19,475 nucleotides of DNA from a virus. Taxonomy: Duplodnaviria > Heunggongvirae > Uroviricota > Caudoviricetes. Within the stretch, counting starts at the first letter, position 1, and each line of letters opens with the position of its first letter. Under the pieces are notes generated by a model. The model made no database searches. It had not been told where the DNA came from and saw only the letters and a list, made by a program, of their open reading frames with translations. A program made the translations under genes and the position numbers. The stretch is from the IMG/VR virus record IMGVR_UViG_2778261380_000011, positions 1 through 19,475 of that record. One strand, written 5' to 3'. Shown piece after piece: positions 1,826-19,475 of this stretch.

Positions 1826-1865
1826 TTAGCCATCAGCAGGACGCACTAACCACCATGAAGGTGGG

Positions 1866-1895
1866 GCTCTTAAAAATTAAGCCCTGAAGAAGGGC
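1866..1895 (+). promoter_or_regulatory. nutL (boxA gctctta 1866-1872, boxB gccctgaagaagggc 1881-1895)
   Basis: boxB hairpin sequence identical to lambda nutL boxB as remembered; located in N leader. Confidence 0.75.
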
Positions 1896-2052
1896 AGCAT
1901 TCAAAGCAGAAGGCTTTGGTGTGTGTGATACGAAACGAAGCATTGGCCGGAAGTGCGAATCCGGATTAGCTGCCAATGTGCCATTGCGAGGTGTTTTCGT
2001 TCAGGACTACGACTCCCACACACAACCAAAGCTAACTGACAGGAGAATCCAG

Positions 2053-2379: not shown

Positions 2380-2387
2380 GGTGAGAT

Positions 2388-2711: not shown

Positions 2712-2727
2712 TCGGCCTTTATTTTTG
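2701..2727 (+). terminator. intrinsic terminator (stop codon inside loop)
   Basis: aggccga (2701-2707) / tcggcct (2712-2718) stem followed by ttatttttgg. Confidence 0.6.
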
Positions 2728-2748
2728 GCATAAACAACAGAGGCTAAC

Positions 2749-3045
2749 ATGGAATTTAAAGGTACTGAAGGTAAGTGGGAAATAATGATGGATGGCGATG
2801 AGATTAAAATCATCCAGGCAGACTCTCTTGAAAATGGCACAGGCTGGCGTTCGTATATTGCAATCTGTGAGGAAGTTCAATGCATTGAAGATGCCAATCT
2901 AATAGTGGCTGCACCTGACCTTCTCGAAGCGCTTCAGTTATTACTTAAGCAAACCAAAAATAGAACAACGACAACATATCCAGAATGGTATGGAGCTGTT
3001 AATAAAGGTCTCGCAGCAATAAGAAAAGCTCTTGGGGATAAGTAA
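2749..3045 (+). CDS. hypothetical protein (98 aa)
   Basis: ORF with AGAGG SD; no family recognised. Confidence 0.65.
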   Translation: MEFKGTEGKWEIMMDGDEIKIIQADSLENGTGWRSYIAICEEVQCIEDANLIVAAPDLLEALQLLLKQTKNRTTTTYPEWYGAVNKGLAAIRKALGDK

Positions 3046-3233
3046 TGAAAGTAAAAATAACCGCTTCTAATACCAGTTTTGTTAGTGTTGGTGATATTAC
3101 AGAAGTAATAACAAACCATGATGGAACACAAGTTATGTGGTCTGATTTTTGTAAAAGATATGAGCGAGTCACTTGGTGTAAACTCGTATGGGGCGTCGAA
3201 TACGAAGAATTACCTGAAATGCATGACGAATAA
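3045..3233 (+). CDS. hypothetical protein (62 aa), start overlaps preceding stop (TAATG)
   Basis: Translational coupling geometry; no family recognised. Confidence 0.55.
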   Translation: MKVKITASNTSFVSVGDITEVITNHDGTQVMWSDFCKRYERVTWCKLVWGVEYEELPEMHDE

Positions 3234-3328
3234 GCACTGTGTATTCATTCCAACGAGTGAATACACGGAGCAATGTCGCTCGTAACTAAACAGGAGCCGA
3301 CTTGTTCTGATTATTGGAAATCTTCTTT

Positions 3329-3353
3329 GCCCTCCAGTGTGAGGGCCTTTTTA
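3329..3353 (+). terminator. intrinsic terminator upstream of cIII (read through under N antitermination)
   Basis: gccctc (3329-3334) / gagggc (3341-3346) stem followed by cttttta; a second hairpin at about 3240-3267. Confidence 0.6.
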
Positions 3354-3418
3354 TATGCATACCAATAACGCTTCACTTGAGGCGTTTTCGTTATGCAATC
3401 AAACAGAAGGAGCATCCT

Positions 3419-3589
3419 ATGCAACAGTTCGCTATTGCAGGGGCGGCATCGGTTCGCCCTTTCAACCCGATTTTATCGGTACAGCATTCACGAAAAAATA
3501 TTTTAACCGGAGCAGACTTTAAACAACCAAGAATGAAAAGCTTGCTCGAAAAGCTTTGGGATATTTTGAAACAACAAGGCCGTCCATGA
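3419..3589 (+). CDS. cIII: CIII-like protein (56 aa)
   Basis: MQQFAIAG...LLEKLWDILKQQGRP resembles lambda CIII (MQYAIAG...LIDILNQPG) from memory; AGGAG 8 nt upstream of ATG 3419; ORF-track start 3314 is an extension. Confidence 0.7.
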   Translation: MQQFAIAGAASVRPFNPILSVQHSRKNILTGADFKQPRMKSLLEKLWDILKQQGRP

Positions 3590-3693
3590 GTTTTACAGAT
3601 AACTGGTCAGACGAAGAATTCATTCGTCTGATGAACAAAATGCTCAATCAGCACAAAGAACAGGAGAAAGATGATGATTCTGACTCTGAATGA
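3586..3693 (+). CDS. possible small acidic protein (35 aa) in the kil position
   Basis: ATG overlaps cIII stop (ATGA at 3586-3589); not in ORF track (short); overlaps start of next gene in another frame. Confidence 0.3.
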   Translation: MSFTDNWSDEEFIRLMNKMLNQHKEQEKDDDSDSE

Positions 3694-3982
3694 TAAGCGT
3701 GAAATATCGCAAATAATCGCAAGTTTTACTGATGAAGATTACGAACGAATCAACAGTGAAGTTAATCGCCTCTGCAAACGTTGCGACCCAATAAGCGAAA
3801 TGCTTCGCTCATATAAACCAGATGAACACACTAAGGACGCTATCGACTGGCTGGAAGATTATGACTGTAACTATCAGGAAAAAGCCGCTGAATGGTTCTG
3901 GGATGCAATAACCGAAAGAGTTAAGGCTGAATATGCCTTCGCAATATTCAAACGCAGACATATTTATGGAGAAGCTGCATGA
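3671..3982 (+). CDS. hypothetical protein (103 aa)
   Basis: ORF with GGAG upstream; stop overlaps recT start (ATGA). Confidence 0.65.
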   Translation: MMILTLNDKREISQIIASFTDEDYERINSEVNRLCKRCDPISEMLRSYKPDEHTKDAIDWLEDYDCNYQEKAAEWFWDAITERVKAEYAFAIFKRRHIYGEAA

Positions 3983-4881
3983 GCAATATCGTTGAATTCG
4001 TTAAACAGCAAGAGCAGTTATTCTGCGGAGCATTGACTGAACAGACGGTGACATGGGCTAAGGAAAGCCAGTTTGCAATTCAGTATTTCCAGAAAAATGA
4101 TTACCTGGCTAAAACGGCACTGGCAAATCCAACCAGCGCACAGAACGCCATCATCAATGTTGCGGCGATCGGCATCACCTTAAACCCGGCCAGCAAACTT
4201 GCTTATCTAGTTCCGCGCGACGGCATGGTTTGCCTTGATATCAGCTATATGGGATTACTTCACCTTGCACAGTCGACAGGATCAATTAAGTGGGGGCAAT
4301 GCAAACTGGTGTACTCAAACGACACCTATGAATCAAACGGCCTTGATTCAGCACCAACCCACAAATACAACGCATTTGGTGAGCGAGGCTCTATTGTTGG
4401 TGGTTATTGTACGGTTAAAACAGCAGATGGTGACTACCTCACTGAAGAAATGAGTCTGGCAGAAATTAAAGCAGTGGAAGCAACGAGCAAGGCAAAGAAT
4501 GGACCGTGGAAAACATTCTGGGAAGAGATGGCACGTAAAACAATAGTTAAACGCGCCAGCAAATACTGGCCTAAAGCCCAGCGACTGGATAATGCCATTC
4601 ACCTGCTTAACGAAGATGAAGGTATGCATCAGGAACCAGTTATGCCGCACAAATCAGAGGAAGATATCCGCGAAGATGAACGGAAACGCCAGCAGGAAAT
4701 AATGGAAAAAGCACAACTTCTTTGTGATGAAATGGCTCAGGCAGAAAACATGGATGATTTGAAGCGATATTTTGCAGAAGCATATCGCCTGACATCTGGA
4801 ATGAAATTGCAGCAGAACGTACAAGCCATTTACATAGAATGCAAAGCGAAACTGGAGGTTGCCAGTGAGCAAACTATATGA
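3979..4881 (+). CDS. recT: RecT-family single-strand annealing recombinase
   Basis: Motif NGPWKTFWEEMARKTIVKRASKYWP resembles RecT NGPWVTHWEEMAKKTAIRRLFKYLP (from memory); 300 aa; coupled to flanking genes. Confidence 0.88.
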   Translation: MSNIVEFVKQQEQLFCGALTEQTVTWAKESQFAIQYFQKNDYLAKTALANPTSAQNAIINVAAIGITLNPASKLAYLVPRDGMVCLDISYMGLLHLAQSTGSIKWGQCKLVYSNDTYESNGLDSAPTHKYNAFGERGSIVGGYCTVKTADGDYLTEEMSLAEIKAVEATSKAKNGPWKTFWEEMARKTIVKRASKYWPKAQRLDNAIHLLNEDEGMHQEPVMPHKSEEDIREDERKRQQEIMEKAQLLCDEMAQAENMDDLKRYFAEAYRLTSGMKLQQNVQAIYIECKAKLEVASEQTI

Positions 4882-5347
4882 AATAGCCAATGAATACGCA
4901 AAATTGATGGATTCAGATTTAGAGCCAGAGATGATTGCTGACACAATAGAAGGCATGGAAGGAGAATTTACCGATAAAATAGAGCAACTTCTTGCCATTA
5001 TTAAAAATGAATCTGGTTATGCTGAACGCCTCAAGGACGAGGCAAAATCACTGAATGAACGAGCCGCAGTAATTCAAAATAAGATTGACAGCATTATGGC
5101 GTATATAGCGTCATCGCTTGAAATGGTTGGCAAGAAAAAGATTCGAGCGGGTATTCACCAGGTAACAATCCGCAAACCGTCAGAAACTGTAGAAATCATC
5201 GACTCAAGCGCCCTTCCTCCTGAATACGTTGAGTTTGAAACGACAATTAAAGCCGACAAACTGGCAATCAAACACCAACTAAAAGCAGGAATAAATATCC
5301 CCGGCGCTCAACTCAAAGTTGGGAAACCTTCACTTCTTATCAAATAA
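4865..5347 (+). CDS. hypothetical coiled-coil protein (about 160 aa) in RecT-partner position, possibly Siphovirus Gp157-like
   Basis: GTG 4865 preceded by GGAGG (4854-4858), overlaps recT stop; family assignment is tentative. Confidence 0.55.
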   Translation: MSKLYEIANEYAKLMDSDLEPEMIADTIEGMEGEFTDKIEQLLAIIKNESGYAERLKDEAKSLNERAAVIQNKIDSIMAYIASSLEMVGKKKIRAGIHQVTIRKPSETVEIIDSSALPPEYVEFETTIKADKLAIKHQLKAGINIPGAQLKVGKPSLLIK

Positions 5348-5358
5348 CGGTATCGCCT

Positions 5359-5673
5359 ATGAAAAAGACTCCATGGGAGAAATGGGAAGTCGATTTCTTA
5401 CGCGAAGTAGCGGCGACAATGCCAGTTGAAGTTATCGCAGAAAAACTGGAAAGGACTGAAAAAGCAGTAATGGCGAAAGCAACAAGGATTGGCGCTGACA
5501 TTGTTAGCCGACTTCGTGGAAGACGCTGGACAAGAGCCGAAGTATCACTTTTCGGTAAGTTCTCCGCAGAAGAAATAGCAATTGCAACCTGCCGCTCAAT
5601 TTATTCAGTAAGAGCTATGCGATACAAGCTAAAAAAACTCGATGAAGAAAGAGCAGGCATACGAATAAATTAA
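5359..5673 (+). CDS. hypothetical protein (104 aa)
   Basis: ORF in operon context; weak SD. Confidence 0.55.
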
Positions 5674-5689
5674 CAAAGAGGAATTTACC

Positions 5690-5854
5690 ATGAGAGGACT
5701 TGCATACAATCCCGGCATTCTTCCGGCAGAAATGATTATTCGCCAACGCGTAAAGCCAATGCCATCGAGAGAGGAATTGCTTAAGAGAAATTCTTTTCCA
5801 TCAGTGAATCAAAACAAATATCTGAATGCGATGTGGAGGAGTGGGAAGAAATGA
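5690..5854 (+). CDS. hypothetical small protein (54 aa)
   Basis: ATG 5690 preceded by AAGAGGA; stop overlaps next start (ATGA at 5851-5854); not in ORF track. Confidence 0.45.
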
Positions 5855-6360
5855 AACAAATGTCACTAATTGAGATGGATGGATTTCTGAAAGGTAAATG
5901 CATCCCACGAGATTTAAAGGTTAACGAAACAAACGCTGAATATCTTGTCCGTAAGTTCGGTGAACTTGAATCAAAACTGGAAACGGCGTTGCGGGAGTGT
6001 CGTTCTGCTGGAATCACGATTGATAACCTTGAGGCCAAGTGCGCGGCGCTGGCAGCGGAGAGTGTGGGGATGAAGAAGTTCTGCAAAGACGCTGCATTCG
6101 ATGCCGATTACGAAGCAGAGCTAGGTATGGAGCGTGGTGGATTCAGTGATGCGCTTAACGAAATCAAAACCCCAGCCACCGATGCTTTCCTGTCTGAAGT
6201 GCGGGCGCAGGGCGTGGAGATGCTGGCAAAAAATCATCAGAGTATCGTCAATGCACTTAAGGGAGATTCTTTATTTTCTGATGGTGAATACCTGCATGCA
6301 GCTATTGTTTCCGCAGCTGTATATTTCGCTGCAGAGCTTCGCAAAGGAGGCAACCAGTGA
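5851..6360 (+). CDS. hypothetical protein (169 aa)
   Basis: ATG 5851 with GGAGG upstream; ORF-track start 5833 is a GTG extension. Confidence 0.65.
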
Positions 6361-6611
6361 GTAATTCAGCACGACTACAGCTTGGTTTTTCACCGCTATC
6401 AAAAACTATCATGCTGGCAAAAATGCGCTATGTTGAAGGTGGACGTATGCGCGTTGGCAATGATCCAGGTCGTGATGTTACCAATGAGGCTGCTCAATTG
6501 GTGTGGCGACTGGTCATGGCTGAAGGTGGTGAGATCGCGTGGGAGCTGGATGATGGTTCTCGCATGGTGTTGAAGGCAGAAAAGCAGGAGGCAACCAGTG
6601 AGCAAGATTGA
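6357..6611 (+). CDS. hypothetical protein (84 aa) bounded by identical 17-mers
   Basis: GTG 6357 overlapping preceding stop, preceded by AGGAGG; ends within second copy of aggaggcaaccagtgag. Confidence 0.45.
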   Translation: MSNSARLQLGFSPLSKTIMLAKMRYVEGGRMRVGNDPGRDVTNEAAQLVWRLVMAEGGEIAWELDDGSRMVLKAEKQEATSEQD

Positions 6612-7584
6612 TTATCAGGCACTGCGTGCTAAGGCAGAAAAAGCAACGTGTGGCGAGTGGTCGCTCGAATATGGAGAGAGCCGATTTGATGGTGATGATG
6701 CGCTAATTCATCGTGAAGTTGCTGGATATATTCCCATTTGCAGAATTGAAGGAGCGCATCCAGAAAGCGGTTTCGATGAAGATTTCCAAATGGAACAGCA
6801 GGCCAATGCTGAATTCATCGCCGCAGCCAATCCGGCTACCGTACTGGCGCTGCTGGATGAACGGGAAAGAAACCAGCAATACATCAAACGCCGTGACCAG
6901 GAGAACGAGGAAATTGCGCTTACGGTAGGGAAGCTGCTAATCGAAAACGGCCGGCTTGTTGCCGATACGCTACGCCACTTAGCTGATAACGAAATCGACT
7001 CTGATTATTTTGCTATCACCTCAACTAATGAGAACGGTACTGAAATTGATCATGAGATGTCTATTACCGATTACGCACTGCAAGCTGCCGGAACTGTAGA
7101 CGAATTGGTTGCGGCGCTGGAAGCCGCAAAATCAAAACTCAACGAGCAGCGTGAATATTACGAGGGAGTAATCGCGGATGGGAGTAAGCGTATTGCTGAA
7201 CTGGAGAAAAGCGAAGAGCAACTCATCAATGAGCGTGACCATGCTGAGTCTGCTTTAGCTGATATGTACTTTGCAGCAACCGGTAACAGGCCGGAGTGGA
7301 GCAACTGGTTCGGCTTTTCAGATGCTGTCGATGCCGTGGTTGACAGAATAGCTGATTTAGAAGCCAAACAGCCATCGCCGGTAGTGCCGGATAATGCATC
7401 AGAGTCGCTTGCTTATGCTTACAAAGAGCTTACGCCTGAGATTATGCGCGGTCATATCGCTGTATTCGAGCGATATGGAATAGCCCCAAACGATAGCATT
7501 ACCACAATTCAGGCACTGCGAATCGCGCTGGATGGTATAGAGCGGAGCGACGCCATGCTTCAGGGAGGTAATAATGACCAATAA
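6598..7584 (+). CDS. Ead/Ea22-like family protein
   Basis: GTG 6598 after AGGAGG; N-terminus MSKIDYQALRAKAEKATCGEW resembles Ea22-like prophage proteins (from memory). Confidence 0.7.
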   Translation: MSKIDYQALRAKAEKATCGEWSLEYGESRFDGDDALIHREVAGYIPICRIEGAHPESGFDEDFQMEQQANAEFIAAANPATVLALLDERERNQQYIKRRDQENEEIALTVGKLLIENGRLVADTLRHLADNEIDSDYFAITSTNENGTEIDHEMSITDYALQAAGTVDELVAALEAAKSKLNEQREYYEGVIADGSKRIAELEKSEEQLINERDHAESALADMYFAATGNRPEWSNWFGFSDAVDAVVDRIADLEAKQPSPVVPDNASESLAYAYKELTPEIMRGHIAVFERYGIAPNDSITTIQALRIALDGIERSDAMLQGGNNDQ

Positions 7585-8188
7585 CAACCTAACAGACGAG
7601 CGCCTGAGCGTACTTATCCGTGTGGCTAGGGATTCTCTTGAATTGTATGAAATGGAGTTGCCTGTCATTGATGATGTAATGCTAGCGCTGGCCGAACTTC
7701 AGCAACGCCGCGCCGCCATGCTTCAGGGAGGCCAACCTGTAAACCAAACTTACAACTTGCCAGAATTAATCGAAGGCATGGAGGTTTCCATTGATGTAAG
7801 CACTTGTGATGCTGATTTAGGTAATCGCTATTTCGGCACCGTCACCGAGGCGTCAGAACTTGATACTGCCAAGAATGGTTACATCCTCCTGGTTCAGGAC
7901 GCAGAGCCAAACTTCGATGTAAATGGCAACTATCCGGTAACTCCGGATGGTTGGATAAGCTGTAGTGAGCGAATGCCAGAAATGGGAGAGCGACAATGCT
8001 ATGTGTTAGCAGCTGACTTTAAAAACAACTACCCACCAAACATCCCCAACACTCAGGTCGGCGTATATGGCGACTGGTTTAATGATGGCAATCCCACTTG
8101 GGATGACGGTGATGGCGAAGACCTGTATCTCAAAGAGGTAACCCACTGGATGCCTCTACCAGAACCGCCTCGATTAAAGGAGCTATAA
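7574..8188 (+). CDS. DUF551 domain protein with ea22-like N-terminal remnant
   Basis: C-terminal motif VTHWMPLPEPP typical of DUF551; N-terminal about 50 aa resemble an Ea22 C-terminal tail and end at a repeated 17-mer. Confidence 0.75.
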   Translation: MTNNNLTDERLSVLIRVARDSLELYEMELPVIDDVMLALAELQQRRAAMLQGGQPVNQTYNLPELIEGMEVSIDVSTCDADLGNRYFGTVTEASELDTAKNGYILLVQDAEPNFDVNGNYPVTPDGWISCSERMPEMGERQCYVLAADFKNNYPPNIPNTQVGVYGDWFNDGNPTWDDGDGEDLYLKEVTHWMPLPEPPRLKEL

Positions 8189-8302
8189 TAGTGAACTATT
8201 ATATCTATTTGTATTAAAAGAGTTTTTATAAAATAAATCTTCCAAAGCATGTAAAAACACTGTTAATCTTAACGTGTGTGAAACGTGAAGAGAGGTGTTG
8301 AA

Positions 8303-8584
8303 ATGAGCATTCATGGTTTGTGTGAAGATCAAGAGCAATGGGCTATGCAGACCCTTATGGGATCAGGAGTTCTTGCAAGGTGCAGAATCCATAACGATGT
8401 AATTTTAGACAGCGGAAATGATGCTTCTTCTGCTTATAAATTAGGAACTTACCTATATCAAAAAGATAATAGCTGCAACTTATTCAATACTCTTACTGAA
8501 GCCCGCGACGCAATAAAGGATGCATATGAATCGTATTGTGGGATTGATGATTGCCCACAATGCTCAAAATACATTGACGATTAA
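8303..8584 (+). CDS. hypothetical Cys-containing protein (93 aa)
   Basis: ATG 8303 with GAGGTG SD; AT-rich upstream region; followed by tandem hairpins 8605-8660. Confidence 0.55.
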   Translation: MSIHGLCEDQEQWAMQTLMGSGVLARCRIHNDVILDSGNDASSAYKLGTYLYQKDNSCNLFNTLTEARDAIKDAYESYCGIDDCPQCSKYIDD

Positions 8585-8672
8585 TAATATGAACAAGTAA
8601 CTATCCTCGCACTCGCGGGGATTTCTTTTATCTGAACTCGCTACGGCGGGTTTTGTTTTATGGAGATGATAA

Positions 8673-8840
8673 ATGCACTTCCGAGTCACAGGTGAATGGA
8701 ATGGAGAGCCATTCAACAGAGTTATCGAAGCAGAAAACATCAATGACTGCTATGACCACTGGATGCTATGGGCGCAGATAGCACATGCAGACGTAACCAA
8801 TATTCGAATTGAAGAACTGAAAGAACACCAAGCCGCCTGA
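8673..8840 (+). CDS. hypothetical small protein (55 aa)
   Basis: ATG 8673 preceded by GGAG; not in ORF track; followed by terminator. Confidence 0.45.
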   Translation: MHFRVTGEWNGEPFNRVIEAENINDCYDHWMLWAQIAHADVTNIRIEELKEHQAA

Positions 8841-8853
8841 TGGCGGTTTTTTA
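8832..8853 (+). terminator. intrinsic terminator
   Basis: ccgcc (8833-8837) / ggcgg (8842-8846) stem followed by tttttta. Confidence 0.6.
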
Positions 8854-8897
8854 TTACCTGATTTGCAGGTTCGATTCCCTATTCGGAGATAGCACTC

Positions 8898-9098
8898 ATG
8901 CAACACGAACTACAGCCTGATTCACTGGTTGATTTGAAATTCATCATGGCCGATACTGGCTTCGGTAAAACCTTCATCTATGACCGGATTAAGTCCGGCG
9001 ACCTGCCAAAAGCCAAAGTTATCCACGGGCGAGCAAGATGGTTATATCGTGACCATTGTGAATTCAAAAATAAGCTCTTAAGCCGCGCCAATGGGTAA
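8898..9098 (+). CDS. alpA: AlpA-family transcriptional regulator / excisionase-like protein
   Basis: 66 aa; LKFIMADTGFGKTFIYDRIKSGDLPKAKVIHGRARWLYRD fits AlpA/Xis winged-helix pattern (from memory); 250 bp upstream of integrase on the same strand. Confidence 0.8.
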   Translation: MQHELQPDSLVDLKFIMADTGFGKTFIYDRIKSGDLPKAKVIHGRARWLYRDHCEFKNKLLSRANG

Positions 9099-9346
9099 AA
9101 TAGCGGGTAAAATATTTCTCACATCTAAAAAATACCATTCCAATCAATCCCCTGCCGCTTCAAGTAGATGTCTGCAGGGGACACCATGAACACTTCTCAC
9201 TAAGTTCAATTAATTCCATAACTCACTGTTTTAACTGATATCATCTCCTTATACTCGTCCAGCAAAGTACCATTATTTCTAATGGAATCTATACATCTTT
9301 GCGTATAACATTGTGTATAACTGAGTTCGATCTTTTTTCTATACAC

Positions 9347-10522
9347 ATGCTGCTATCTGACATCCAAATAAAAAGAGCAAAACCGAAGGACAAACCCTAT
9401 ACGCTTAACGATGGTATGGGGCTATCACTCCTGATCGACACAGCGGGCAGTAAAGGCTGGCGTTTTCGCTATCGCTTTGCAGGTAAGCCTAAGATGATTT
9501 CCTTTGGCGTATATGGCGATGTGTCGTTGGCACAGGCACGTACCAAACGTGATGAAGCGCGTTCGATGTTAGCCAACGGGATAAACCCAAGTGAAGCCAG
9601 AAAAGCAGATAAGATTGCTTTGCAGTTCGCGCATGAGAACAGCTTTGAGTCTGTGGCCAGAGAATGGCACTCATCGAAAAAAGCCACCTGGTCAGAGGGT
9701 TATGCAAAAGAGGTTCTCAATTGTATGGAAAAGGATATTTTTCCTTTTATCGGCCAGCGCCCAATTGAGCAGATTGAACCATTAGAACTGCTAACCGTCC
9801 TGCAAAAAATAGAGAAAAGAGGTGCGCTAGAGCAAACCAGTAAGATCCGCCGCCGCTGTGGTGAAGTGCTTCGTTATGCTGTTGCCACTGGTAGAGCAAA
9901 GTATAATTTTGCACCCGATTTAGCTATCGCACTCAACAAACCTAAAACCCAACACTTCCCGTTCCTGACTGAAAGCGAGTTGCCCGAGTTCGTTAATGCT
10001 CTGGATAACTATCAGGGCAGTTTAGTTACCAAATACGCCACGCAGCTGTTGATGCTAACAGGCGTGCGAACAATTGAACTACGTGCAGCGGAATGGGCTG
10101 AGTTTGATTTAGATAATGCCTTATGGGAGATCCCCAAAGAACGGATGAAGAAACGCCGCCCCCATCTGGTTCCGTTATCAACTCAGGCGATCAATATCCT
10201 GAAAAAGCTGCAAGAAATAACAGGGAATTACAGCCTCGTTTTCCCTGGCCGGAATGACGTCAGTAAACCAATGAGCGAAGCCAGCATCAACAAAGTGATA
10301 AAACTACTGGGTTATCACGGTCGGTTAACGGGTCACGGTTTCAGGCATACCATGAGCACCATCTTGCATGAGCATGGGTTTGAAAGTGCCTGGATTGAAA
10401 TGCAGCTTGCGCATGTTGATAAGAACTCTATTCGAGGTACTTACAATCATGCGCAATATATTAAAGATCGACAAGTAATGATGGAATGGTACGCTAGCTT
10501 ATTAAATACGACCTGCTATTAA
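9347..10522 (+). CDS. int: tyrosine recombinase, P4-type integrase
   Basis: N-terminus MLLSDIQIKRAKPKDKPYTLNDGMGLSLLIDTAGSKGWRFRYRF typical of P4-family arm-binding domain; C-terminal HGFRHT (HxxR) and catalytic Tyr region RGTYNHAQY; ORF-track start 9299 is an extension. Confidence 0.92.
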   Translation: MLLSDIQIKRAKPKDKPYTLNDGMGLSLLIDTAGSKGWRFRYRFAGKPKMISFGVYGDVSLAQARTKRDEARSMLANGINPSEARKADKIALQFAHENSFESVAREWHSSKKATWSEGYAKEVLNCMEKDIFPFIGQRPIEQIEPLELLTVLQKIEKRGALEQTSKIRRRCGEVLRYAVATGRAKYNFAPDLAIALNKPKTQHFPFLTESELPEFVNALDNYQGSLVTKYATQLLMLTGVRTIELRAAEWAEFDLDNALWEIPKERMKKRRPHLVPLSTQAINILKKLQEITGNYSLVFPGRNDVSKPMSEASINKVIKLLGYHGRLTGHGFRHTMSTILHEHGFESAWIEMQLAHVDKNSIRGTYNHAQYIKDRQVMMEWYASLLNTTCY

Positions 10523-11452
10523 ATCCAGCATGAAACAAATATGGTGAGTAATTTGATACTGTTTGTTTTTTGGCAACCCAGGGAAATGCCTTACAGTTGG
10601 TTGACTATTGTAATAATAATAGTTAAGACCAATGTTGCTGCCAAACTGGGTTGGATGTTGGGGAACAAGATTTGTAATTTGATCTGAAACATCTAAAAAT
10701 TTTGCAGTAACATTTGAACTTCCTCGTTGCGTGTTGCTTGATACAAAATGACGAATCCAAACTGTATTCGCTTGTAAATTCTTGAACACCAAATGTGCGG
10801 CAACAGCAGAAGGTTGACCACCTCCAAGATCTAGTACCTGGCCAGTAATTGTATAATCGCCAAATCCTAAGTAATTTTGTCCCACGAATTGATGTGCGTG
10901 CGTGAAAAGTTCCGGCCCATTATAATCAGCATTTTTTGCTAACTTTCTAAAGTTATCGCTAATAATAATTAACTTCGACAAAGGAAGAAGAGCGCACTGA
11001 TTAGGAAGCATTTTATTATTTAAAACAACATGATAACTAATCAATTGATTTGTCGCCAACAACTGAATATCAGAGTTGGATAATGATGGATTATCATATA
11101 GAAGTGCAACTCGTCTATTTAAGTTAGCATTCAACCAATTATTAATATCATTAATCGTTGTATTGGGCTGAATAAGATATCCAGAGATGATATTATTTTT
11201 ATTTGTTAATACACTTGATAAATTTTGATTTAAAGTTAAGACGTTATTGTGTGAAGAAAAATCTTCCTGATAAGGATTAAGGATAACAATTATGTCAGAA
11301 TTCCAAACATTTAAACATGTTAATAAATTTCTCGTATTGACGTTAATTGGTTCTAAAATTGGTAGCAGACCATTTAGGCTAACTCCCTTCGCAACGAGGT
11401 CCCTAAGGCATAATAACTCTGTACTTCTCGCATACAAATATGGGCTATACAT
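10502..11452 (-). CDS. hypothetical protein (316 aa), second gene of AT-rich cargo operon
   Basis: ATG 11452 preceded by AGGAG; 21-nt gap after upstream gene; no recognisable domain; 3' end overlaps integrase 3' end by 21 nt (convergent). Confidence 0.8.
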   Translation of the reverse strand: MYSPYLYARSTELLCLRDLVAKGVSLNGLLPILEPINVNTRNLLTCLNVWNSDIIVILNPYQEDFSSHNNVLTLNQNLSSVLTNKNNIISGYLIQPNTTINDINNWLNANLNRRVALLYDNPSLSNSDIQLLATNQLISYHVVLNNKMLPNQCALLPLSKLIIISDNFRKLAKNADYNGPELFTHAHQFVGQNYLGFGDYTITGQVLDLGGGQPSAVAAHLVFKNLQANTVWIRHFVSSNTQRGSSNVTAKFLDVSDQITNLVPQHPTQFGSNIGLNYYYYNSQPTVRHFPGLPKNKQYQITHHICFMLDLIAGRI

Positions 11453-11473
11453 AACTTACAACTCCTGAGGATA

Positions 11474-12355
11474 TCAACAAATTTTAATTTTTACATCCAT
11501 CAAATTCATGATGAATTCTTTTTGCTTTCTTGATAATGGTGTTGCATAACCTAAAACACGTAAACATGCTGGAAGAGAATAAATATAATCCAAAAAAACT
11601 TTATCGTTACATCTTTTTTTCATAGCAGAGATAAAGTATTTATTTGCTATGTTTAATGGCATCTGCATGAATATCTCTTTACAATATTCATAAACCAATC
11701 CGTTAGGCATATTTATTTTAGTTGAAGTGTAATCTTCTATTATAGCTAAGAACTCTTCCTTTCTAAGAACTGAAAACAAGCTGTCACTTTTAATATAATC
11801 AATATTTGAATCTGCCTCCTTAATGACACTCAATTGATCTTTTTTATTCAAAACCATAACTCCCACTCTGGGGAGATTTAAAGCACAATATTTACTTGCA
11901 TACTCTGGATGTGTAACTATATACACTTTATCAAAAACATCCAAATAATCAGGGGCTTGAGTAATCAACCTTTTTGGTGAATCATACTCTGTCTTAATCT
12001 CGTAAGCTGTAGACGTACCATTAAACACCGCAACATCCACTATAGAGTTTTTAATTGGTAACTCTATGGACGACGAACTTGTTTTTGGGCTGTGCTTACC
12101 GAATATTATTTTATTGACAAGTGCTGTCTTATAAACATATTCATTTCTATAATTCAGACGCAAAAAATCATATAATGATGTAAATAAATCCCTTAGTGAA
12201 ATCTCATGTTCATTATTATCATTGTTTGAAAACAGTGTTTCATAGCAGTAAGAATCAAAACTCCCAAATAAATCCGAAATATCCTTACCTTTTGCTAAGG
12301 ATGAAAAAATGGGGCGACGGAAAAATTTAGCATATTCCTTTTTATTATGACTCAT
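11474..12355 (-). CDS. hypothetical protein (293 aa) with PD-(D/E)xK nuclease-like motif, first gene of AT-rich cargo operon
   Basis: Motif SIVD(107)VAVF-x9-YE(119)IK(121) (nt 11993-12037); strongly AT-rich coding sequence. Confidence 0.8.
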   Translation of the reverse strand: MSHNKKEYAKFFRRPIFSSLAKGKDISDLFGSFDSYCYETLFSNNDNNEHEISLRDLFTSLYDFLRLNYRNEYVYKTALVNKIIFGKHSPKTSSSSIELPIKNSIVDVAVFNGTSTAYEIKTEYDSPKRLITQAPDYLDVFDKVYIVTHPEYASKYCALNLPRVGVMVLNKKDQLSVIKEADSNIDYIKSDSLFSVLRKEEFLAIIEDYTSTKINMPNGLVYEYCKEIFMQMPLNIANKYFISAMKKRCNDKVFLDYIYSLPACLRVLGYATPLSRKQKEFIMNLMDVKIKIC

Positions 12356-13034
12356 TACTCATACTCTATAAACATCATGCAATTTGATAAGTTATGACGA
12401 ATTCTCACCATCCAGTTACTACCTGTACATACTAATCAAAAAAAACGAGTACGCAAGATACGAAAGTACTTTTCTTGTTCACCAGTTAGCTTACCTTGAT
12501 CCTCACCAGCGACTGGAAGATAGGTAGCAGTATATGTGGAAACCTTCCCCTAGCTAGGTCTACAAACGTAGTTTGGGCATTTAGGCTCCACGATTCACGG
12601 TTTGACACGGCCTGATATCTGCACATTCGTTTTGATATGCAGCAATCGTGAAAAAGGAAAATATACGCTCGACAGACCAAAACGGCACTACACCGCACCC
12701 GCCTGCGGTTTTCATATCACTAAAAATTTTCAGCCTGGATTTTTTACAAACGATACCGCCAGTCCGTGCCAGTCCTCGAGATGTACTGCGATACAGGAAC
12801 TGAAAAGAATGAAAAGAAATTCATTTTTTTTCAGTTTTACTGTCCGTCGAATCTATGGCCTGAATACGCAACTCTATGATATTAAATGGATAATTAATTT
12901 TAGGTGTGTGATTTTATGAAGGTTTGTGAAACATGAAGAAGATAACCAGTTGAAAAATAATAATTTTATGACCGTATAAACTGAAATCCTGTGTTCAGGT
13001 TCCGGGAACAGATCGGCCATTCCCGACGCATACT

Positions 13035-13307
13035 TTACCCATTCTTTTGCGCAGCCAGCAGCAACTTTAAAGCCTTTTCCCGTTCCTCGGGTGGAATTGC
13101 ATCAATCAGCTCTTTAACCCTTCCCTGCCCGTTCAGCGCGCTTGGACTAACGGAATGGGAGAAAGCAACATTCATCACAAACGAGTGACCGCACTCCACA
13201 TTAGAGCAATAGCAGTACACATCGTACAGTTGTGGGTGTTTCCTGTTTGTTTTACCTATCCGTGCTACTGCCTGACATGTGGGGCAGTACATTCTCATCA
13301 TCTTCAT
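13035..13307 (-). CDS. Ogr/Delta-family zinc-finger transcriptional activator
   Basis: MYCPTCQ...YCYCSNVECGH Cys4 pattern as in P2 Ogr / P4 Delta; exact start among several N-terminal Met codons uncertain. Confidence 0.75.
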   Translation of the reverse strand: MKMMRMYCPTCQAVARIGKTNRKHPQLYDVYCYCSNVECGHSFVMNVAFSHSVSPSALNGQGRVKELIDAIPPEEREKALKLLLAAQKNG

Positions 13308-13373
13308 CGTTCTGTGCCCTATACTGTTGCCCGCCAGAAGAAGGGATTTGGATCCCTACCTCTTGTTCTGAAC

Positions 13374-13563
13374 GTGTAACACTGGTAACACGTGTAACGC
13401 TATTGATTTAAAAGGATTTAATCTGTTACCAGTTAGCAAAATCAAGAGGTAACGCGTGGTAACACACCATTTTTTGTTACCTCTGTTACCAGTCAGTATT
13501 TTTGACTGGTAACACTGAAGAACCGCATCAGTAACGGGTGTTACCTCTGTTACCAGTGTTACC
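13374..13563. repeat. iteron array: about 13 copies of TGTTACC / GGTAACA heptamer in both orientations, mostly phased at 9 bp; putative replication origin
   Basis: Copies at 13374-13399 (three tandem 9-mers), 13424-13430, 13448-13464, 13475-13490, 13508-13514, 13531-13563; located immediately downstream of primase gene. Confidence 0.75.
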
Positions 13564-13589
13564 TCATAAAAATAAGACTCACGCGATAA

Positions 13590-16277
13590 TCACTCAGGTT
13601 CAGCGCTTCCCAGTACCTGTGTATTGAACTGGTACACACGTTTAAGCCCTATTTCTGGCAGGCGAATGCTGTTTTGCGTCCGGCCATCTTCACCGGGTTT
13701 CAGCCAGCCCGCGTCCACACACAACCTGGCCACCTTACGCGAGTCAAATCCCTTACAGATCTCCTTCCAGCCTGACGGGAGAACGTAGAACGTCACAACC
13801 GGCTCTGTCACGTTGTCTCCTTTATCGACTTTTCTGAATCCCATCATTGAAACAGGCCGGTTCCTGTCGTCATTCCAGTCAGCAAACCGACTGAACTGAT
13901 TACGCGTCATGAAGTCCCGAACCTGTTCAAGTGCCGCTTTATCTTCCTGATTAGCTGTATGGCCCCGGTCAGCCATCCATGCAGCCAGACAGCTTTGAGC
14001 GGCACGAAAGGCCTCTCCCTCCGGCCATCCTGTGATGCCCGCTTTTGTGGCCAGCTCCCCGGCCATCGCAACCAGAGCAAAACGGGTAACAGCCCGGCCA
14101 ACCTGATTCCCGGCATTTTCCGGCGTCAGCCTTCGGGTATACTCTTTCAATAAGGCTTTCGCCTGACTGGTCAGTTCCGGCAGATCAGCGGTCAGGCAAT
14201 ACAGCCAGTCGCGGAATGGTGCACCATGATAATGCGCTACGTGCTGCTCAAGATGCTCAGCCAGGGTTTTCCCGCTACTGAAGCCATGAAGTTCTTCAAA
14301 CACGCCATACTTGCCCGAATCGCTTGGGATCTGGATCATTCTGACCTCAACCCCGGCATACGTACGTTCCCCGGCGCTTGCCGCATGCTCTACCAGTGAC
14401 AGTTCCCCGGTAGACAGAAACAACAGATTCCAGCGGTTGGTTTCCCTTACCGAACCATCTGTTCTGGCTCTGGCTTTGCCCTGCCCGTTAGCCAGCATAT
14501 AAGCGATATTTCCCGCCTCCCTGCCGTCAACCTCCCGGATTTCATCCAGCATCAGCGTGGCATCATTGCGGCGGCTCGCCGTTCCTTCTAAGGCATTCCC
14601 CGTCGCCCGCCACGTATGCCAGAAATCTGTTCCACCACATACTGATGCAGCCACTTTCATCGTCGTGGTTTTACCGTCTGTGGATTCCCCTTTGAGGTGA
14701 TAACCTCCACCGCCGATACCAACCAGTTTCAGAAGGGGGGCAGCAAATGCCAGACTCACCGCAAAGGCAAGACGGGCATTCTTTATGCAATAACGGCCTA
14801 TATTTTCACGCCAGCCCTCTGATGTGCCGCTGACACGAAAATCACGCCCCTGCACACTCGATGTTTGTAAGATGACTGACTGGGCTTCGCGCCCTATCAC
14901 TTCATCCTGGAGAACGTAAACCCCGCCGTGCCAGCCAGTTTTATTCACACAGGTTACTTTTCTGTCCGGTTTACACAGCGAGATATATTCCATCAGGAAT
15001 GCTCTGGCCATGCCGTTAATGTTGATGTAAGAAAGCCCGTTAACCAGCAGAACGCGGCGCAGTTCTTCCCCGCTACCGCCCAGCATCTCCATCGGCATTG
15101 CCCATTTACGGCTGTTTCCGTTGGTATCTTCCCATTCCAGCAAACGCCCGTAATTACTTCCATCAGCATCACTGGTGATTGCCGTCACCCGCAACGGACT
15201 GCAAATTTTGATATTACGTATCTCTGTATCACCATCAGACTTATTAACCAGCTTGTCGTACCACAAATATTCTTTTGTCAGCCGGAACCCTTCTGGTAAA
15301 CGGGTCTGCCCTTTGCCATGCAGCGTCATTTCTTCACGAAAGGCATCTCTCGCCCGTTCTTTCCCCACTTCCTGCCGATAATCATCCCAGTCAGCCTTAT
15401 GGCGTACCGGAGGGAGCGTTACCCAGCCATCCACCGCTTTGGCGGCTTTCTCTGCCTGAATACGCCCGGTGTTTTCTTTGCCGTCAGCCAGATCATTATC
15501 TCCGGCCAGAATGATCCGGGTTTCCGGCCAGCGTTTTCGGATCTGCTCCGTCACCTTCAGTAAATTGGTGGCAGCGACAGCCGCCACGATCCATCCTTCA
15601 GTCAGCAGACTGACGGTAAGCGCCGTGGCAAAACCCTCAGTGATAATCACCTGTTCAGGTGTTTCAGCGGGTATATCGGTCAGGGCAATGAATGCGCCAG
15701 ACAGCTGGCTACCGGGCAGCAGACTTTTATCCCCGTCAGGATTGATAAGCTGGCCACCAGTAATATTCCCGGAAATATCCGTCAAAGGCAGCAGTAATGA
15801 ACCGGTGGAAAATGTTATTCCGGCCAGATTCAAAGGCTGTGACAGCAAGGGAAGTGAATACCCGTGTAAGCTCTTATTTGTCAGATAGACCGGCTCACCA
15901 TTGCAGGACTGCTGTCTGAGTCTGGTATATCGCTCCGCGCCCGCTTCTTTTCCTGCGGCCTTTTTCCTGGCTGGCAATGCGGGCTTCTCCTGTATTTCTG
16001 GTAATGCAAGCGCCTCAGATACCATCCCGGCGACTTCTTTTATCTTTCTTCCTGTCACCAGACGAACCAGATCAAGACCATCGCCATGACCGCACTGATT
16101 ACAAAACCACGTCCCTCGCCCCGCTTTATCGTCCAGTCGAAAACGATCTTTTCCACCACAGGCAGGGCAAGCCCCATGATGTCCTGCGGACGGTACTTTA
16201 ATACCTAATGCTGACAGGATATAAGGCCAGCGCCCAATTGCAGCTCCGGAAATCGTGGATACAGACGGTGTTTTCAC
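13590..16277 (-). CDS. P4 alpha-type primase-helicase (895 aa)
   Basis: N-terminal zinc-binding primase motif CPACGG...WFCNQCGHGDG; Walker A GESTDGKTT; GTG start 16277 preceded by AGGAGG and overlapping upstream stop (GTGA). Confidence 0.9.
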   Translation of the reverse strand: MKTPSVSTISGAAIGRWPYILSALGIKVPSAGHHGACPACGGKDRFRLDDKAGRGTWFCNQCGHGDGLDLVRLVTGRKIKEVAGMVSEALALPEIQEKPALPARKKAAGKEAGAERYTRLRQQSCNGEPVYLTNKSLHGYSLPLLSQPLNLAGITFSTGSLLLPLTDISGNITGGQLINPDGDKSLLPGSQLSGAFIALTDIPAETPEQVIITEGFATALTVSLLTEGWIVAAVAATNLLKVTEQIRKRWPETRIILAGDNDLADGKENTGRIQAEKAAKAVDGWVTLPPVRHKADWDDYRQEVGKERARDAFREEMTLHGKGQTRLPEGFRLTKEYLWYDKLVNKSDGDTEIRNIKICSPLRVTAITSDADGSNYGRLLEWEDTNGNSRKWAMPMEMLGGSGEELRRVLLVNGLSYININGMARAFLMEYISLCKPDRKVTCVNKTGWHGGVYVLQDEVIGREAQSVILQTSSVQGRDFRVSGTSEGWRENIGRYCIKNARLAFAVSLAFAAPLLKLVGIGGGGYHLKGESTDGKTTTMKVAASVCGGTDFWHTWRATGNALEGTASRRNDATLMLDEIREVDGREAGNIAYMLANGQGKARARTDGSVRETNRWNLLFLSTGELSLVEHAASAGERTYAGVEVRMIQIPSDSGKYGVFEELHGFSSGKTLAEHLEQHVAHYHGAPFRDWLYCLTADLPELTSQAKALLKEYTRRLTPENAGNQVGRAVTRFALVAMAGELATKAGITGWPEGEAFRAAQSCLAAWMADRGHTANQEDKAALEQVRDFMTRNQFSRFADWNDDRNRPVSMMGFRKVDKGDNVTEPVVTFYVLPSGWKEICKGFDSRKVARLCVDAGWLKPGEDGRTQNSIRLPEIGLKRVYQFNTQVLGSAEPE

Positions 16278-16684: not shown

Positions 16685-16913
16685 CGCGCATCACTCCCTT
16701 AATTGTGCTGGTTTCCTTAACAACGCCATCCAGTTGTTCGGCAATACAGGCCACTAAAGCCGCAGCGCCTTCCGCTGAAACAGTTCTCGCTCCATTCACT
16801 GTGGGCACGGACAAGACCTCTGCAAGAAACTCACTGGCCAGTGCCGCCCGTAACAGACGACTCTCCCCCTGTTCACTCAATATGCAGCCTTGCTTAAAAT
16901 TCATGGATTTCAT
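16677..16913 (-). CDS. hypothetical protein (78 aa)
   Basis: ATG 16913 preceded by GGAGGTG; overlaps neighbours at both ends. Confidence 0.6.
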   Translation of the reverse strand: MKSMNFKQGCILSEQGESRLLRAALASEFLAEVLSVPTVNGARTVSAEGAAALVACIAEQLDGVVKETSTIKGVMRDE

Positions 16914-17113
16914 GCAACCACCTCCCCGGCTCTTTTCACAGGGATACGGGCAGCAAAGCTCAGGATAAATTCAGTGGCAAGTTTAAGGCGTGCAGCATGC
17001 TCGCATTCTGCGATTACACGCACAGGGCGTGGACGGGCATCACGGTCTGTACGGCGGACAGCCAGAAAGACAAAGGTAAATTCAGGGTGAGATAAAGCAG
17101 GGACTGTAGCCAT
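16910..17113 (-). CDS. hypothetical protein (67 aa), first gene of replication operon
   Basis: ATG 17113 preceded by AAGGAGG (rc of 17121-17127); ORF-track 196-aa version is an unsupported upstream extension across the leader. Confidence 0.6.
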   Translation of the reverse strand: MATVPALSHPEFTFVFLAVRRTDRDARPRPVRVIAECEHAARLKLATEFILSFAARIPVKRAGEVVA

Positions 17114-17123
17114 AATGGCAACC

Positions 17124-17390
17124 TCCTTCAGATAGCGGGTAACGCTACCACCGGAGTTCCTACGCTCATGGGTGGTAGCCCAGACGGGGGTAGGAATACC
17201 GGCTCTGAAGGATACCGGCCAGCCCGAAAGCTGCCCCGCCTGGACTACCATAATTCTGATGATGTGGCGTAAAAAATAAAAAAATACAATCAGCCACCAC
17301 ACCATAAATTTTAGGTGAGTCAAAGCTGCGACACAAAAAAACACGCCTAGCGCGTGTAGTATCGCCTTCAGATAACACGGGTTCCTACGC
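17124..17390 (-). promoter_or_regulatory. structured leader with duplicated element (gttcctacgc at 17156-17165 and 17381-17390, each after ccttcagata) and a complementary gtaggaa motif (17190-17196) between them; P4 CI-RNA-like immunity architecture
   Basis: Direct repeat plus internal complement; inverted repeat gctaccacc/ggtggtagc (17135-17179) encloses the downstream copy just before the RBS. Confidence 0.45.
17334..17357 (-). terminator. intrinsic terminator/attenuator within the leader
   Basis: On minus strand: stem acacgc/gcgtgt (17341-17357) followed by U7 (rc of 17334-17340). Confidence 0.6.
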
Positions 17391-17419
17391 CCGGCTGCCG
17401 ATTTTGCGGCAACCTTTAA

Positions 17420-17449
17420 ACTATATCCCGCGCATTCCTGGTGAGGCAA
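17420..17449 (-). promoter_or_regulatory. sigma70-like promoter for the leader/replication operon (-35 TTGCCT rc of 17444-17449, 18-nt spacer, -10 TATAGT rc of 17420-17425)
   Basis: Hexamers read on minus strand upstream of the repeated leader element. Confidence 0.5.
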
Positions 17450-17552
17450 GAAATTTATAACCGAAAACTGATCATTGCCTGGATTAATTAACGCTGGCAT
17501 GCTTAAGCCTCTGCTTAAAAATAGTTCTTCATTTTTCCTGATGCTGTAAACG

Positions 17553-17587: not shown

Positions 17588-18592
17588 TCAATCCGCAAAC
17601 GTCAGGGTGCACTCATCAACAGCCGCGTACAGTTCAGGTTCACCGAGTGCATAACCTTCATTGCGCAGGTAGGAATGCACGTATTCACTGCTTTCATCAT
17701 CAAACTCAGCACGAAACCAGCGTGTTATCGCCTGAGTGTAAATATGCAGATTATCCAGCGTCGTTACTGCCAGACGCTTACCCGGCATAAACGGGGGAAT
17801 AAACGCAAAGCGGCCAGCAACAGAACTTGTAGCCATCTGTGCCGCATTCACATCAGACGGGCGGTCTGCGGCATTAAATAACTTCAGGCGTTGATGTGCT
17901 GCCAGCTCTGCCCCAACCAGTACAACCAGACGAGGATCTTCACGAAACTGCTCAGCAATAAGCTCTGTAATCAGATGGTTGGCCAGAGCATCAATATTTT
18001 TCCAGGTGCCAGTCTCTCCCAGAGTGACAGGCTCAGAGATGATTTGCTTTCCGTTCCCGTAGGCTTTCGCCAGTGCATGCCAGCCAATATTGACATCCTC
18101 GCCTTTTTTATTGATTTCCGGGTTTGTAGTATTTGCAATCGACACACCGTTGAAACCGACCCGCAGCATGTCCAGCGCATATGCCTGGGCAAAAAAGCTC
18201 TCAACCGTTTTCTCAAACTCATCCGGCACGCCGGTATGGTAAATATGAGACATATCGGAATAGCTGATCCGGGCGCAGGTATCCGTCTCTGTCAGAAAGA
18301 ACTCCGTACCATTGATTGCCATTTTTTTGTGGAAACGGCCACCATCCACACGTCCGGTATACAGTTCACTGGCACCAATATTGACGGCATTACCTGACAC
18401 GGCGTTAACATCACGTAGGGTAATATTTTTAATAAGCCACCCGGATTCCAGAATTGAGGTACGCAGTATATTTTCAGTAGGTTCGCTTAATGCAAAGCGT
18501 CTGTTTGATTCTTCCTGATAGTTAGTGCCAGTGACGAATTTATTATGATAACGACGTGCTGCGTCCGGCCTTTCAGTTTTGAAGGCATACAT
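17588..18592 (-). CDS. P2-family major capsid protein (gpN-like) homolog
   Basis: Segments LDMLRVGFNGVS, DALANHLITELIAEQFREDPRLVVLVGAELAA and C-terminal half align with P2 gpN as I remember it; ATG 18592 with AAGGTG SD. Confidence 0.7.
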   Translation of the reverse strand: MYAFKTERPDAARRYHNKFVTGTNYQEESNRRFALSEPTENILRTSILESGWLIKNITLRDVNAVSGNAVNIGASELYTGRVDGGRFHKKMAINGTEFFLTETDTCARISYSDMSHIYHTGVPDEFEKTVESFFAQAYALDMLRVGFNGVSIANTTNPEINKKGEDVNIGWHALAKAYGNGKQIISEPVTLGETGTWKNIDALANHLITELIAEQFREDPRLVVLVGAELAAHQRLKLFNAADRPSDVNAAQMATSSVAGRFAFIPPFMPGKRLAVTTLDNLHIYTQAITRWFRAEFDDESSEYVHSYLRNEGYALGEPELYAAVDECTLTFAD

Positions 18593-18614: not shown

Positions 18615-19475
18615 TTAAGAAAAGATTTTATTTTTGTACTCAGTAACCAGATTGTATTTCATTACATGCTCAACATAATCCCGGTCACTTACGACTGAAC
18701 GTAATACATAATTATCTGCTCGATAGTACTCCCTGTAAGCCATAGCTCTTGCCATTCCACCGTTATTTAATACATAACGATCAGTTGGAACGCTACAACG
18801 ACTAATAATTTCACTCACGGAATCAGATAAAGACTTGAGTGCATCAGTAATAAATTTAATATCACGGACAACGTCACTGTCATTAAATACAGAAATAAAA
18901 TCAGCAGGGATCTGGCCGGATTGAGGAAATATATTCAGTAAACGCTTATCGATTCCCTTCCCAATGTAGTTTCCTTCATCGGCCAGTACTCCCGGCAAAA
19001 GCTTGATCGTGCTCAATCGACTATGTTGTTCATTCAACCGGGAAACAGCCAGATGGTAATACCGTTCAGCATCCGCTCGTTCAGCATGCCCCATTTTATT
19101 CGTTTTGGCTTCAGCAATGCTACTGACGCCGTTTTTTGAGAATGTGCTTTTCCATGCAACTTCCGCATTTGTCACTTCACGCTGCCGGAAAGATAACTCT
19201 TCCTCTTCCTGACGACACAACTGGGCATAACGGCTCAGGAGCAGGTTGATCTCATTCGCCACAGTTTCCGTATCAGGTACTGTTAACCCCGTAAGTGAAT
19301 ACAGCTTTTCACCTTTAGCTCGCAGCTTATTCAGTGAATATATTTCAATAATACGCACAATACAGGCCGTGTCGCTATGAGTCTCTTTAAATGATCTTAC
19401 TTTGTAACTATCTAACACCGACACATGTTCGTTCTTAATTGATGCCAATTTCTTCTTAAAAACATTGTCAACCAT
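18615..19475 (-). CDS. hypothetical protein (286 aa), AT-rich
   Basis: ORF begins with ATG exactly at window end (rc of 19473-19475) and ends 22 nt before capsid gene; no family recognised. Confidence 0.65.
   Translation of the reverse strand: MVDNVFKKKLASIKNEHVSVLDSYKVRSFKETHSDTACIVRIIEIYSLNKLRAKGEKLYSLTGLTVPDTETVANEINLLLSRYAQLCRQEEEELSFRQREVTNAEVAWKSTFSKNGVSSIAEAKTNKMGHAERADAERYYHLAVSRLNEQHSRLSTIKLLPGVLADEGNYIGKGIDKRLLNIFPQSGQIPADFISVFNDSDVVRDIKFITDALKSLSDSVSEIISRCSVPTDRYVLNNGGMARAMAYREYYRADNYVLRSVVSDRDYVEHVMKYNLVTEYKNKIFS

Follow-up and report, generated by a model that had tools for sequence, protein, structure and literature searches.

The stretch of DNA that we analyzed (19,475 nt; hereafter the window) carries, at positions 13375 to 13563, an array of heptamer repeats that is very likely the replication origin of a P4-like island of ~11 kb at argW, read by the winged helix of the island's own primase-helicase. 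By its sequence features, the array belongs to the known PICI/SaPI/P4 type of origin, of which it presents an unusually regular, mirror-symmetric form. The preliminary description had proposed that the primase-helicase encoded next to the repeats uses them as its origin or cis-replication region, and this proposal gains support from the presence of the array in about 50 loci, the joint switching of winged helix and iterons, the fold shared with SaPIbov1 Rep and Cch, and the fact that there is a single array.

Layout and conservation of the iteron array

The array comprises 13 heptamers built on a GTTAC core, namely, nine exact copies of TGTTACC and four degenerate copies that carry either one mismatch (TGTTACA and CGTTACC) or two (CGTTACA and CGTTACT). 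Exact TGTTACC/GGTAACA occurs 13 times in the window, compared to 1.7 occurrences expected, and none of 200 shuffled sequences reached this number; nine of the 13 exact copies are located within 13384-13563. The core pentamer GTTAC/GTAAC was found 38 times in the window, of which 13 are in a 196-bp stretch spanning the array, where ~0.25 are expected (Poisson P = 2e-18), and the maximum in any other 196-bp stretch of the window was 2. The cores start at 13376, 13385, 13394, 13425, 13449, 13459, and 13476, followed by 13485, 13509, 13531, 13540, 13549, and 13558. Phasing of exactly 9 bp is seen at 13376/13385/13394, 13476/13485, and 13540/13549/13558, and the pair 13449/13459 is spaced by 10 bp. 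A distance of 26 nt separates the array from the stop codon (13590-13592) of a minus-strand open reading frame (ORF) that encodes an 895-aa primase-helicase, and a gene for an ogr/Delta-type zinc-finger protein (90 aa, 13035-13307) lies ~70 nt past the other end of the array. These data bear out the earlier claims of about 13 heptamer iterons that occur in both orientations, are frequently spaced by 9 bp, and lie directly downstream of the primase-helicase gene.

Starting from the side of the ogr-like gene, the array opens with an outer triplet on the minus strand (13375-13399; CGTTACA, TGTTACC, and TGTTACA, with 9-bp phasing), a triplet that is kept in all iteron classes. This is followed by an AT-rich block (13400-13423), a single inverted TGTTACC iteron on the plus strand (13424-13430), and an inner pair on the minus strand (13448-13464; CGTTACC and TGTTACC, 10 bp apart). 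The segment CCATTTTTTG with its T6 tract (13465-13474) is the center of mirror symmetry, as deduced from the symmetric pair sums. The gene-proximal arm consists of an inner pair on the plus strand (13475-13490; TGTTACC TC TGTTACC, 9 bp apart), a single inverted iteron on the minus strand (13508-13514) that forms a perfect 12-bp palindrome with 13484-13495, and an outer triplet of three TGTTACC copies on the plus strand (13539-13563; 9-bp phasing). The array is mirror-symmetric about ~13469: the core starts of partner iterons sum to 26934 in five pairs (13376 + 13558, 13385 + 13549, 13394 + 13540, 13425 + 13509, and 13449 + 13485) and to 26935 in the remaining one (13459 + 13476). The array thus contains 12 conserved heptamers and 1 nonconserved heptamer, the latter being the degenerate minus-strand copy CGTTACT at 13530-13536, which is absent from the relatives (L003 has CGCTACT) and is probably not a functional site.

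The AT-rich block (CTATTGATTTAAAAGGATTTAATC) is a candidate DNA-unwinding element. Of the 24-mers in this region, it has the lowest stability, ranking at the 99th percentile for the whole window, and it contains the motif TTTAAATCAA, which is conserved across loci. The block is off-center, and the window lineage has it in a single arm; relatives from Proteus, Xenorhabdus, and Rahnella have a mirror copy in the other arm. Within the array, there is no DnaA box, and neither an intrinsic terminator nor a sigma-70-like promoter was found on the gene strand. The palindrome at 13484-13514 was considered as a terminator and rejected, since it corresponds to two inverted iterons and has no T-run.

Conserved motifs flank the array on both sides. 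Between the stop codon and the first iteron is the motif CTTATTTTT (13568-13576, minus strand), which is nearly invariant in 18 aligned loci and is also found in other iteron classes. Beyond the other end, the motif TTCTGGCGGGC (13329-13339, minus strand) accompanies the array in nearly all loci. Its consensus, T(T/C)CTGGC(N)GGC, is located 40 to 70 nt past the final triplet of iterons in almost all related loci and in every iteron class, and it is kept whatever the next gene is (window, 13329-13339; L002, 9456-9472). The sequence TTTTCCTGGCTTGCC, which adjoins the P4 ori, resembles this motif. In a group of loci that are ~67% identical and include Shigella (L025-L027, L039, and L045), the array is followed by two TGT-N12-ACA sites 38 bp apart, at ~+310 and +348 after the stop codon, and then by a 253-aa ORF (MNNTAENNN...); this order mirrors that of P4, namely, ori, then Psid, and then sid.

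A scan of species-representative genomes retrieved 55 related Enterobacterales loci, encoding proteins that are 60 to 92% identical to the window protein. An array follows the same gene in about 50 of them, which is essentially every intact locus, and in about 45 it is immediately 3' of the gene. In L038, L044, and L055 (~7700-7950), an integrase-like ORF is inserted between the two, and a TGTTCCCAC array is found 1.1 to 1.3 kb downstream. The layout is fixed: 12 sites are arranged in two mirror-symmetric arms of six, grouped 3-1-2 and 2-1-3, and the center-to-center pattern '<<< 31 > 24 << 17 >> 24 < 31 >>>' is kept across genera and for at least six iteron sequences. In the 18 loci of the TGTTACC class, conservation amounted to 93% in iteron columns and 68% in spacer columns (Mann-Whitney P = 6e-19). 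Between lineages, the iteron sequence switches as a block, at all 12 positions together. We distinguished at least seven iteron classes (TGTTACC, TGTTACCC, TGTTACACC, TGTTCCACC, TGTATCC, TGTACTAC, and TGTTCCCAC), and a mixture of TGTAACC and TGTCACC represents an additional type.

The primase-helicase and its covariation with the iterons

The gene next to the array (13590-16277, minus strand) was assigned as encoding a primase-helicase-initiator on the basis of its Pfam domains and its alignment with P4 alpha. The 895-aa protein is composed of a primase Zn-ribbon (residues 33 to 68), a Toprim domain (210 to 307), a DUF927 helicase (331 to 614), and a C-terminal domain (640 to 895). Residues 1 to 317 share 38% identity with P4 alpha (E = 2e-49), and nothing beyond them aligns. 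The DUF927 part matches the SaPIbov1 replication initiator-helicase (8tch; phmmer, 1.5e-13) and the SCCmec Cch helicase (5dgk). Megablast against a phage collection gave no match, and tblastn retrieved only partial relatives with at most 38% identity.

An AlphaFold2 model of residues 640 to 895, based on a 79-sequence alignment, had a mean pLDDT of 92 and consists of a helical bundle followed by a winged helix, with a recognition helix at 846 to 855 and wing strands at 869 to 873 and 877 to 884. In Foldseek searches with this model, 8tch (E = 5e-5, probability 1.0) and 5dgk were the only significant PDB matches; 5vfx also appears among the fold matches listed. The origin-binding domain of P4 alpha was absent from the lists of PDB matches by both sequence and fold, and no similarity of the C-terminal domain to the C terminus of P4 alpha was detectable. 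In this chimeric protein, a P4-type primase is thus combined with a DUF927 helicase and C-terminal domain of the SaPI-Rep type. We propose that the predicted winged helix (codons 798 to 889; 13611-13886, minus strand), delimited from the AlphaFold2 model, the fold matches, and the clustering of substitutions, is the reader of the iterons.

Comparison of related loci agrees with this assignment, since amino acid changes pile up in the 39-residue helix-wing segment 846-884 where iterons switch. In five pairs of loci with different iterons, 25 of the 64 amino acid differences in residues 320 to 895 fall into this segment, as compared with 19 of the 252 differences in 17 pairs with the same iteron, the chance expectation being 6.8% (Fisher P = 5e-9, with locus pairs that are not fully independent). 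Synonymous changes are equally frequent within the segment and elsewhere (0.205 versus 0.197 per codon), whereas the nonsynonymous rate is 9-fold higher within it (0.128 versus 0.014), which argues against simple hitchhiking on a divergent recombination tract. The region encoding the winged helix is only 20 to 280 nt away from the array, and linkage therefore contributes to the covariation.

The positions that changed recurrently are 846 and 850 in the recognition helix and 866, 867, 870, 878, and 880 in the wing. R866 occurs with TGTTACC and also with TGTATCC, TGTAACC, and TGTACTAC, and K866 occurs with TGTTACCC, TGTTACACC, and TGTTCCACC; R880W or R880F goes with TGTATCC, TGTAACC, and TGTACTAC. 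These comparisons point to iteron sequences that are Rep-allele specific. In the array of Pectobacterium polonicum (L008, 6685-6900), TGTAACC, TGTCACC, and TGTATCC are mixed, with TGT..CC and the layout retained, and its winged helix carries R880W, as does that of the all-TGTATCC relative L009; this array may be an intermediate of a specificity switch. The gene of another locus, L021, has a 33-aa in-frame deletion in DUF927.

We also attempted to exclude other island proteins as readers of the iterons by their invariance in the switch pairs. This approach failed, as other proteins differ between these pairs as well, several of them substantially. Their exclusion is instead based on L047 (3581-5701) and L049 (3614-5695), which encode DUF927 proteins with the C-terminal domain and without the Zn-ribbon/Toprim primase domain. 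These genes are followed by the same array of 3-1-2 and 2-1-3 iterons in an unrelated neighborhood (AntA-like and other genes) that lacks the ogr, Ash, and capsid genes. The DUF927 helicase together with the C-terminal domain is thus the constant partner of the array.

Comparison with known replication origins

The closest counterparts are the Rep-ori systems of SaPI1, SaPIbov1, and SaPI5, in which the ori is immediately 3' of rep, as is the array 3' of the primase-helicase gene in the window (Ubeda et al.; Qiao et al. 2022, PMC9371898). SaPI Reps bind 6 to 12 iterons at this site via a C-terminal winged helix and are self-loading (PMC9371898). Further shared features are short iterons in two oppositely oriented sets, an AT-rich segment, an initiator in which an MCM-like, self-loading DUF927 helicase is joined to a C-terminal winged helix for reading the iterons, and iterons that are specific to the Rep allele. 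The window differs from the SaPIs in its Gram-negative host and P4-like island, in iterons that are heptamers to nonamers instead of penta- or hexamers, in the strict 6+6 mirror arrangement of 3-1-2 and 2-1-3 with the AT-rich block off-center inside one arm, and in the P4-alpha Zn-ribbon/Toprim primase fused to the helicase. Every defining feature of a PICI/SaPI origin that can be tested on sequence was found.

In the E. coli island EcCICFT073, a Gram-negative PICI, a segment containing pri-rep and ori replicates a plasmid (Fillol-Salom et al. 2018, PMC6092414). Its ori (L059, 12010-12238, E. coli CFT073) resembles the array of the window in being located directly 3' of pri-rep, and it contains ~11 TGTCTACC iterons that occur in both orientations with 9-bp phasing and flank AT-rich DNA. 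Differences concern the Pri-Rep, which is of the SF3 type with D5_N, DUF5906, and Pox_D5 in place of DUF927, the grouping of the iterons (2-1-3 followed by 2-1-2), and the iteron itself. The SCCmec protein Cch (5dgk) has a DUF927 helicase and the same C-terminal fold without a fused primase; no Cch-associated iteron array was found in our comparison.

The preliminary description had drawn an analogy to the ori and crr of P4, features of which were taken in part from the GenBank annotation. This analogy stood for the primase domain, which is homologous (38% identity), and for the crr-like position of the array directly 3' of the gene, crr likewise containing pairs spaced by 9 bp. The P4 iterons TGTTCACC are very similar to TGTTACC, and the P4 ori consists of a single 3-1-2 set, as in each arm of the window array, followed by a similar TTCCTGGC motif. 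The analogy did not extend to the helicase (DUF927, not D5/DUF5906; P4 alpha continues with D5_N, DUF5906, and Pox_D5), to origin binding, for which the window protein would use a SaPI-Rep-type C terminus where P4 alpha has a Pox_D5 C-terminal DNA-binding domain, or to the separation of ori and crr, both of which P4 needs and which are about 4.5 kb apart in P4, whereas the window has one symmetric array. Furthermore, the P4 iteron is an octamer, the window heptamer being one base shorter, and no TGTTCACC cluster is present in the window. Membership in the P4 ori/crr system was therefore rejected with respect to the octamer, the alpha-type helicase and origin-binding domain, and the separate ori and crr; the cluster 3' of a primase-helicase gene and the 3-1-2 layout are a resemblance in architecture. 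An iteron origin of the plasmid type (RepA/pi/TrfA; direct repeats of 17 to 22 bp, DnaA boxes, and a WH1-WH2 Rep) was also rejected, because the iterons are 7 to 9 bp long and point both ways, the array lacks a DnaA box, and the initiator is itself the helicase.

The initiators of the D5/Pox_D5 type (P4 and EcCICFT073) and of the DUF927 type have strikingly similar TGT..ACC iterons, with 9-bp phasing and grouped inverted sets. Similarity between the C-terminal domains of the two types was not detectable.

An alternative reading is that initiation takes place elsewhere in the island, with the array serving as an enhancer in cis, like crr, or in copy control by handcuffing or titration of the initiator. 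This would fit P4, where the cluster that directly follows alpha is crr and not ori, and plasmid iteron arrays also act in copy control. However, no second iteron cluster is present anywhere in the island, the array has the 3-1-2 layout of the P4 ori twice over, and the arrays that follow rep in the SaPIs and EcCICFT073 are functional origins. We thus consider an accessory role of this kind unlikely and, as there is one array rather than a separate ori and crr, the array is better called ori.

The argW island and the proposed function of the array

From position 9172 on, the window sequence coincides exactly with that of an ~11-kb E. coli island located at argW, a tRNA-Arg site. The segment containing pri-rep and the array is present in 466 of 5,426 complete E. 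coli genomes (~8%), including ST131 strains, and more than 400 E. coli genomes have an intact primase-helicase gene with at least 99% identity. In addition to the array and this gene, the island contains an integrase, an sce7725/sce7726 gene pair adjoining it (10502-12355, minus strand), the ogr/Delta-like gene, and two small ORFs; an HTH gene is located just past the end of the window. The sce7726-like protein matches the PADLOC model "cII", and P4 cII is itself annotated as belonging to the sce7726 family; the pair thus occupies the position of the P4 gop-beta-cII defense hotspot. The ~680 nt at 12356-13034 contain no annotated gene, with 25 to 30% GC at 12780-13000.

An Ash/Icd-like ORF (16910-17500) overlaps minus-strand Rfam matches to C4 antisense RNA (17168-17255, 81 bits) and isrK (17336-17413, 69 bits), both above the gathering score, which suggests a P4/P1-type RNA immunity region. 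The island is hence P4-like in several respects, i.e., ogr/Delta, Ash, the C4-type RNA, and the cII-like sce7726 gene. Neither sid nor psu was annotated or detected in it. A P2-family major capsid gene (17588-18592, minus strand) is preceded by a 286-aa ORF (18615-19475, minus strand) for which there was no Pfam or PHROG family match; P4-like satellites normally borrow the capsid protein of the helper, and a capsid gene of their own is unusual.

Positions 1-9171 had been considered as the chromosomal flank of strain SA186. This was rejected, as they correspond to the early arm of a tandem lambdoid prophage, with cII, a LexA-family repressor, N, RecT, ead/Ea22, and a TorI excisionase. Prophage and island are arranged in tandem at argW, as they are in strain G749 and some ST131 genomes, and, of the tRNA, the junction at 9172 contains no more than the 3' 15 nt (CTGCAGGGGACACCA).

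The location of the array also bears on the idea that the repeats are operators for an island transcription factor (Ogr/Delta-like, Ash/Icd-like, or HTH) that controls ogr/delta. The array occupies the region that precedes the ogr-like gene, its last iteron is overlapped by an Ogr/Delta-type TGT-N12-ACA match (TGTTCTGAACGTGTAACA, 13364-13381), and, as mentioned above, island proteins other than the primase-helicase vary between the switch pairs too. Ogr/Delta late promoters are recognized by a TGT-N12-ACA dyad that is ~55 bp upstream of the start site and conserved among relatives, whereas the match at 13364-13381 is confined to the window and its closest relatives (L003, L004, L005, and L016), and matches in the whole window are not above chance; it is probably incidental. 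Furthermore, the array persists in loci that have a sid-like operon or unrelated genes in place of ogr next to it, as well as in L047 and L049 with their different gene content. L021 and L008 have ogr-like proteins that do not differ in residues 1 to 45 despite different iterons, and no sigma-70-like promoter was found on the gene strand within the array. Operator function is, in our view, very unlikely.

It is highly improbable that the repeats serve in packaging, partition, or recombination or that they are a decaying relic with no present function: a search of the window for P2/P4 cos sequences, with up to 3 mismatches allowed, was negative and the island may be defective, but cos of the P2/P4 type is a single 19-nt cohesive-end region unlike a heptamer array, the iterons are conserved far above the spacers in a layout fixed across genera, and the gene is intact in the E. 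coli genomes mentioned above.

For the preferred reading, in which the array is the origin, the following sequence of events can be envisaged. The C-terminal winged helices of a hexameric primase-helicase would bind the TGTTACC heptamers, and each arm of six sites may recruit one hexamer, with one winged helix per iteron, as the 6+6 count would suggest. Two hexamers would then assemble head to head, and nearby AT-rich DNA would melt, the candidates being 13400-13423 and/or the central T-tract. The helicase would load itself with no separate loader, and the fused primase would prime bidirectional theta replication.

A more far-reaching and tentative idea is that the 6+6 layout is a physical template for a head-to-head double hexamer and that residues 846, 866, 870, and 880 versus iteron positions 4 to 7 constitute a specificity code. 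If true, orthogonal satellite replicons would be predictable from sequence and could be engineered, and the sharing of one layout by D5-type and DUF927-type initiators would imply that the origin architecture has outlived a swap of the helicase module.

The novelty of these findings is modest, and no new kind of system is revealed; what they add is a 6+6 mirror layout that is strictly kept from one iteron class to another, a map of the winged-helix residues that change with the iterons, and the chimeric replicase. The gene and ~200 bp would define a compact replicon with a set of probably orthogonal variants, and the comparative series provides a testable map of winged-helix residues versus iteron sequence. 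The regular 6+6 layout could serve as a model of how self-loading helicases assemble. Taken together, the array locates the candidate origin of a satellite-like island that is found in ~8% of complete E. coli genomes and whose replicase joins a P4-type primase to a self-loading helicase of the SaPI-Rep type.
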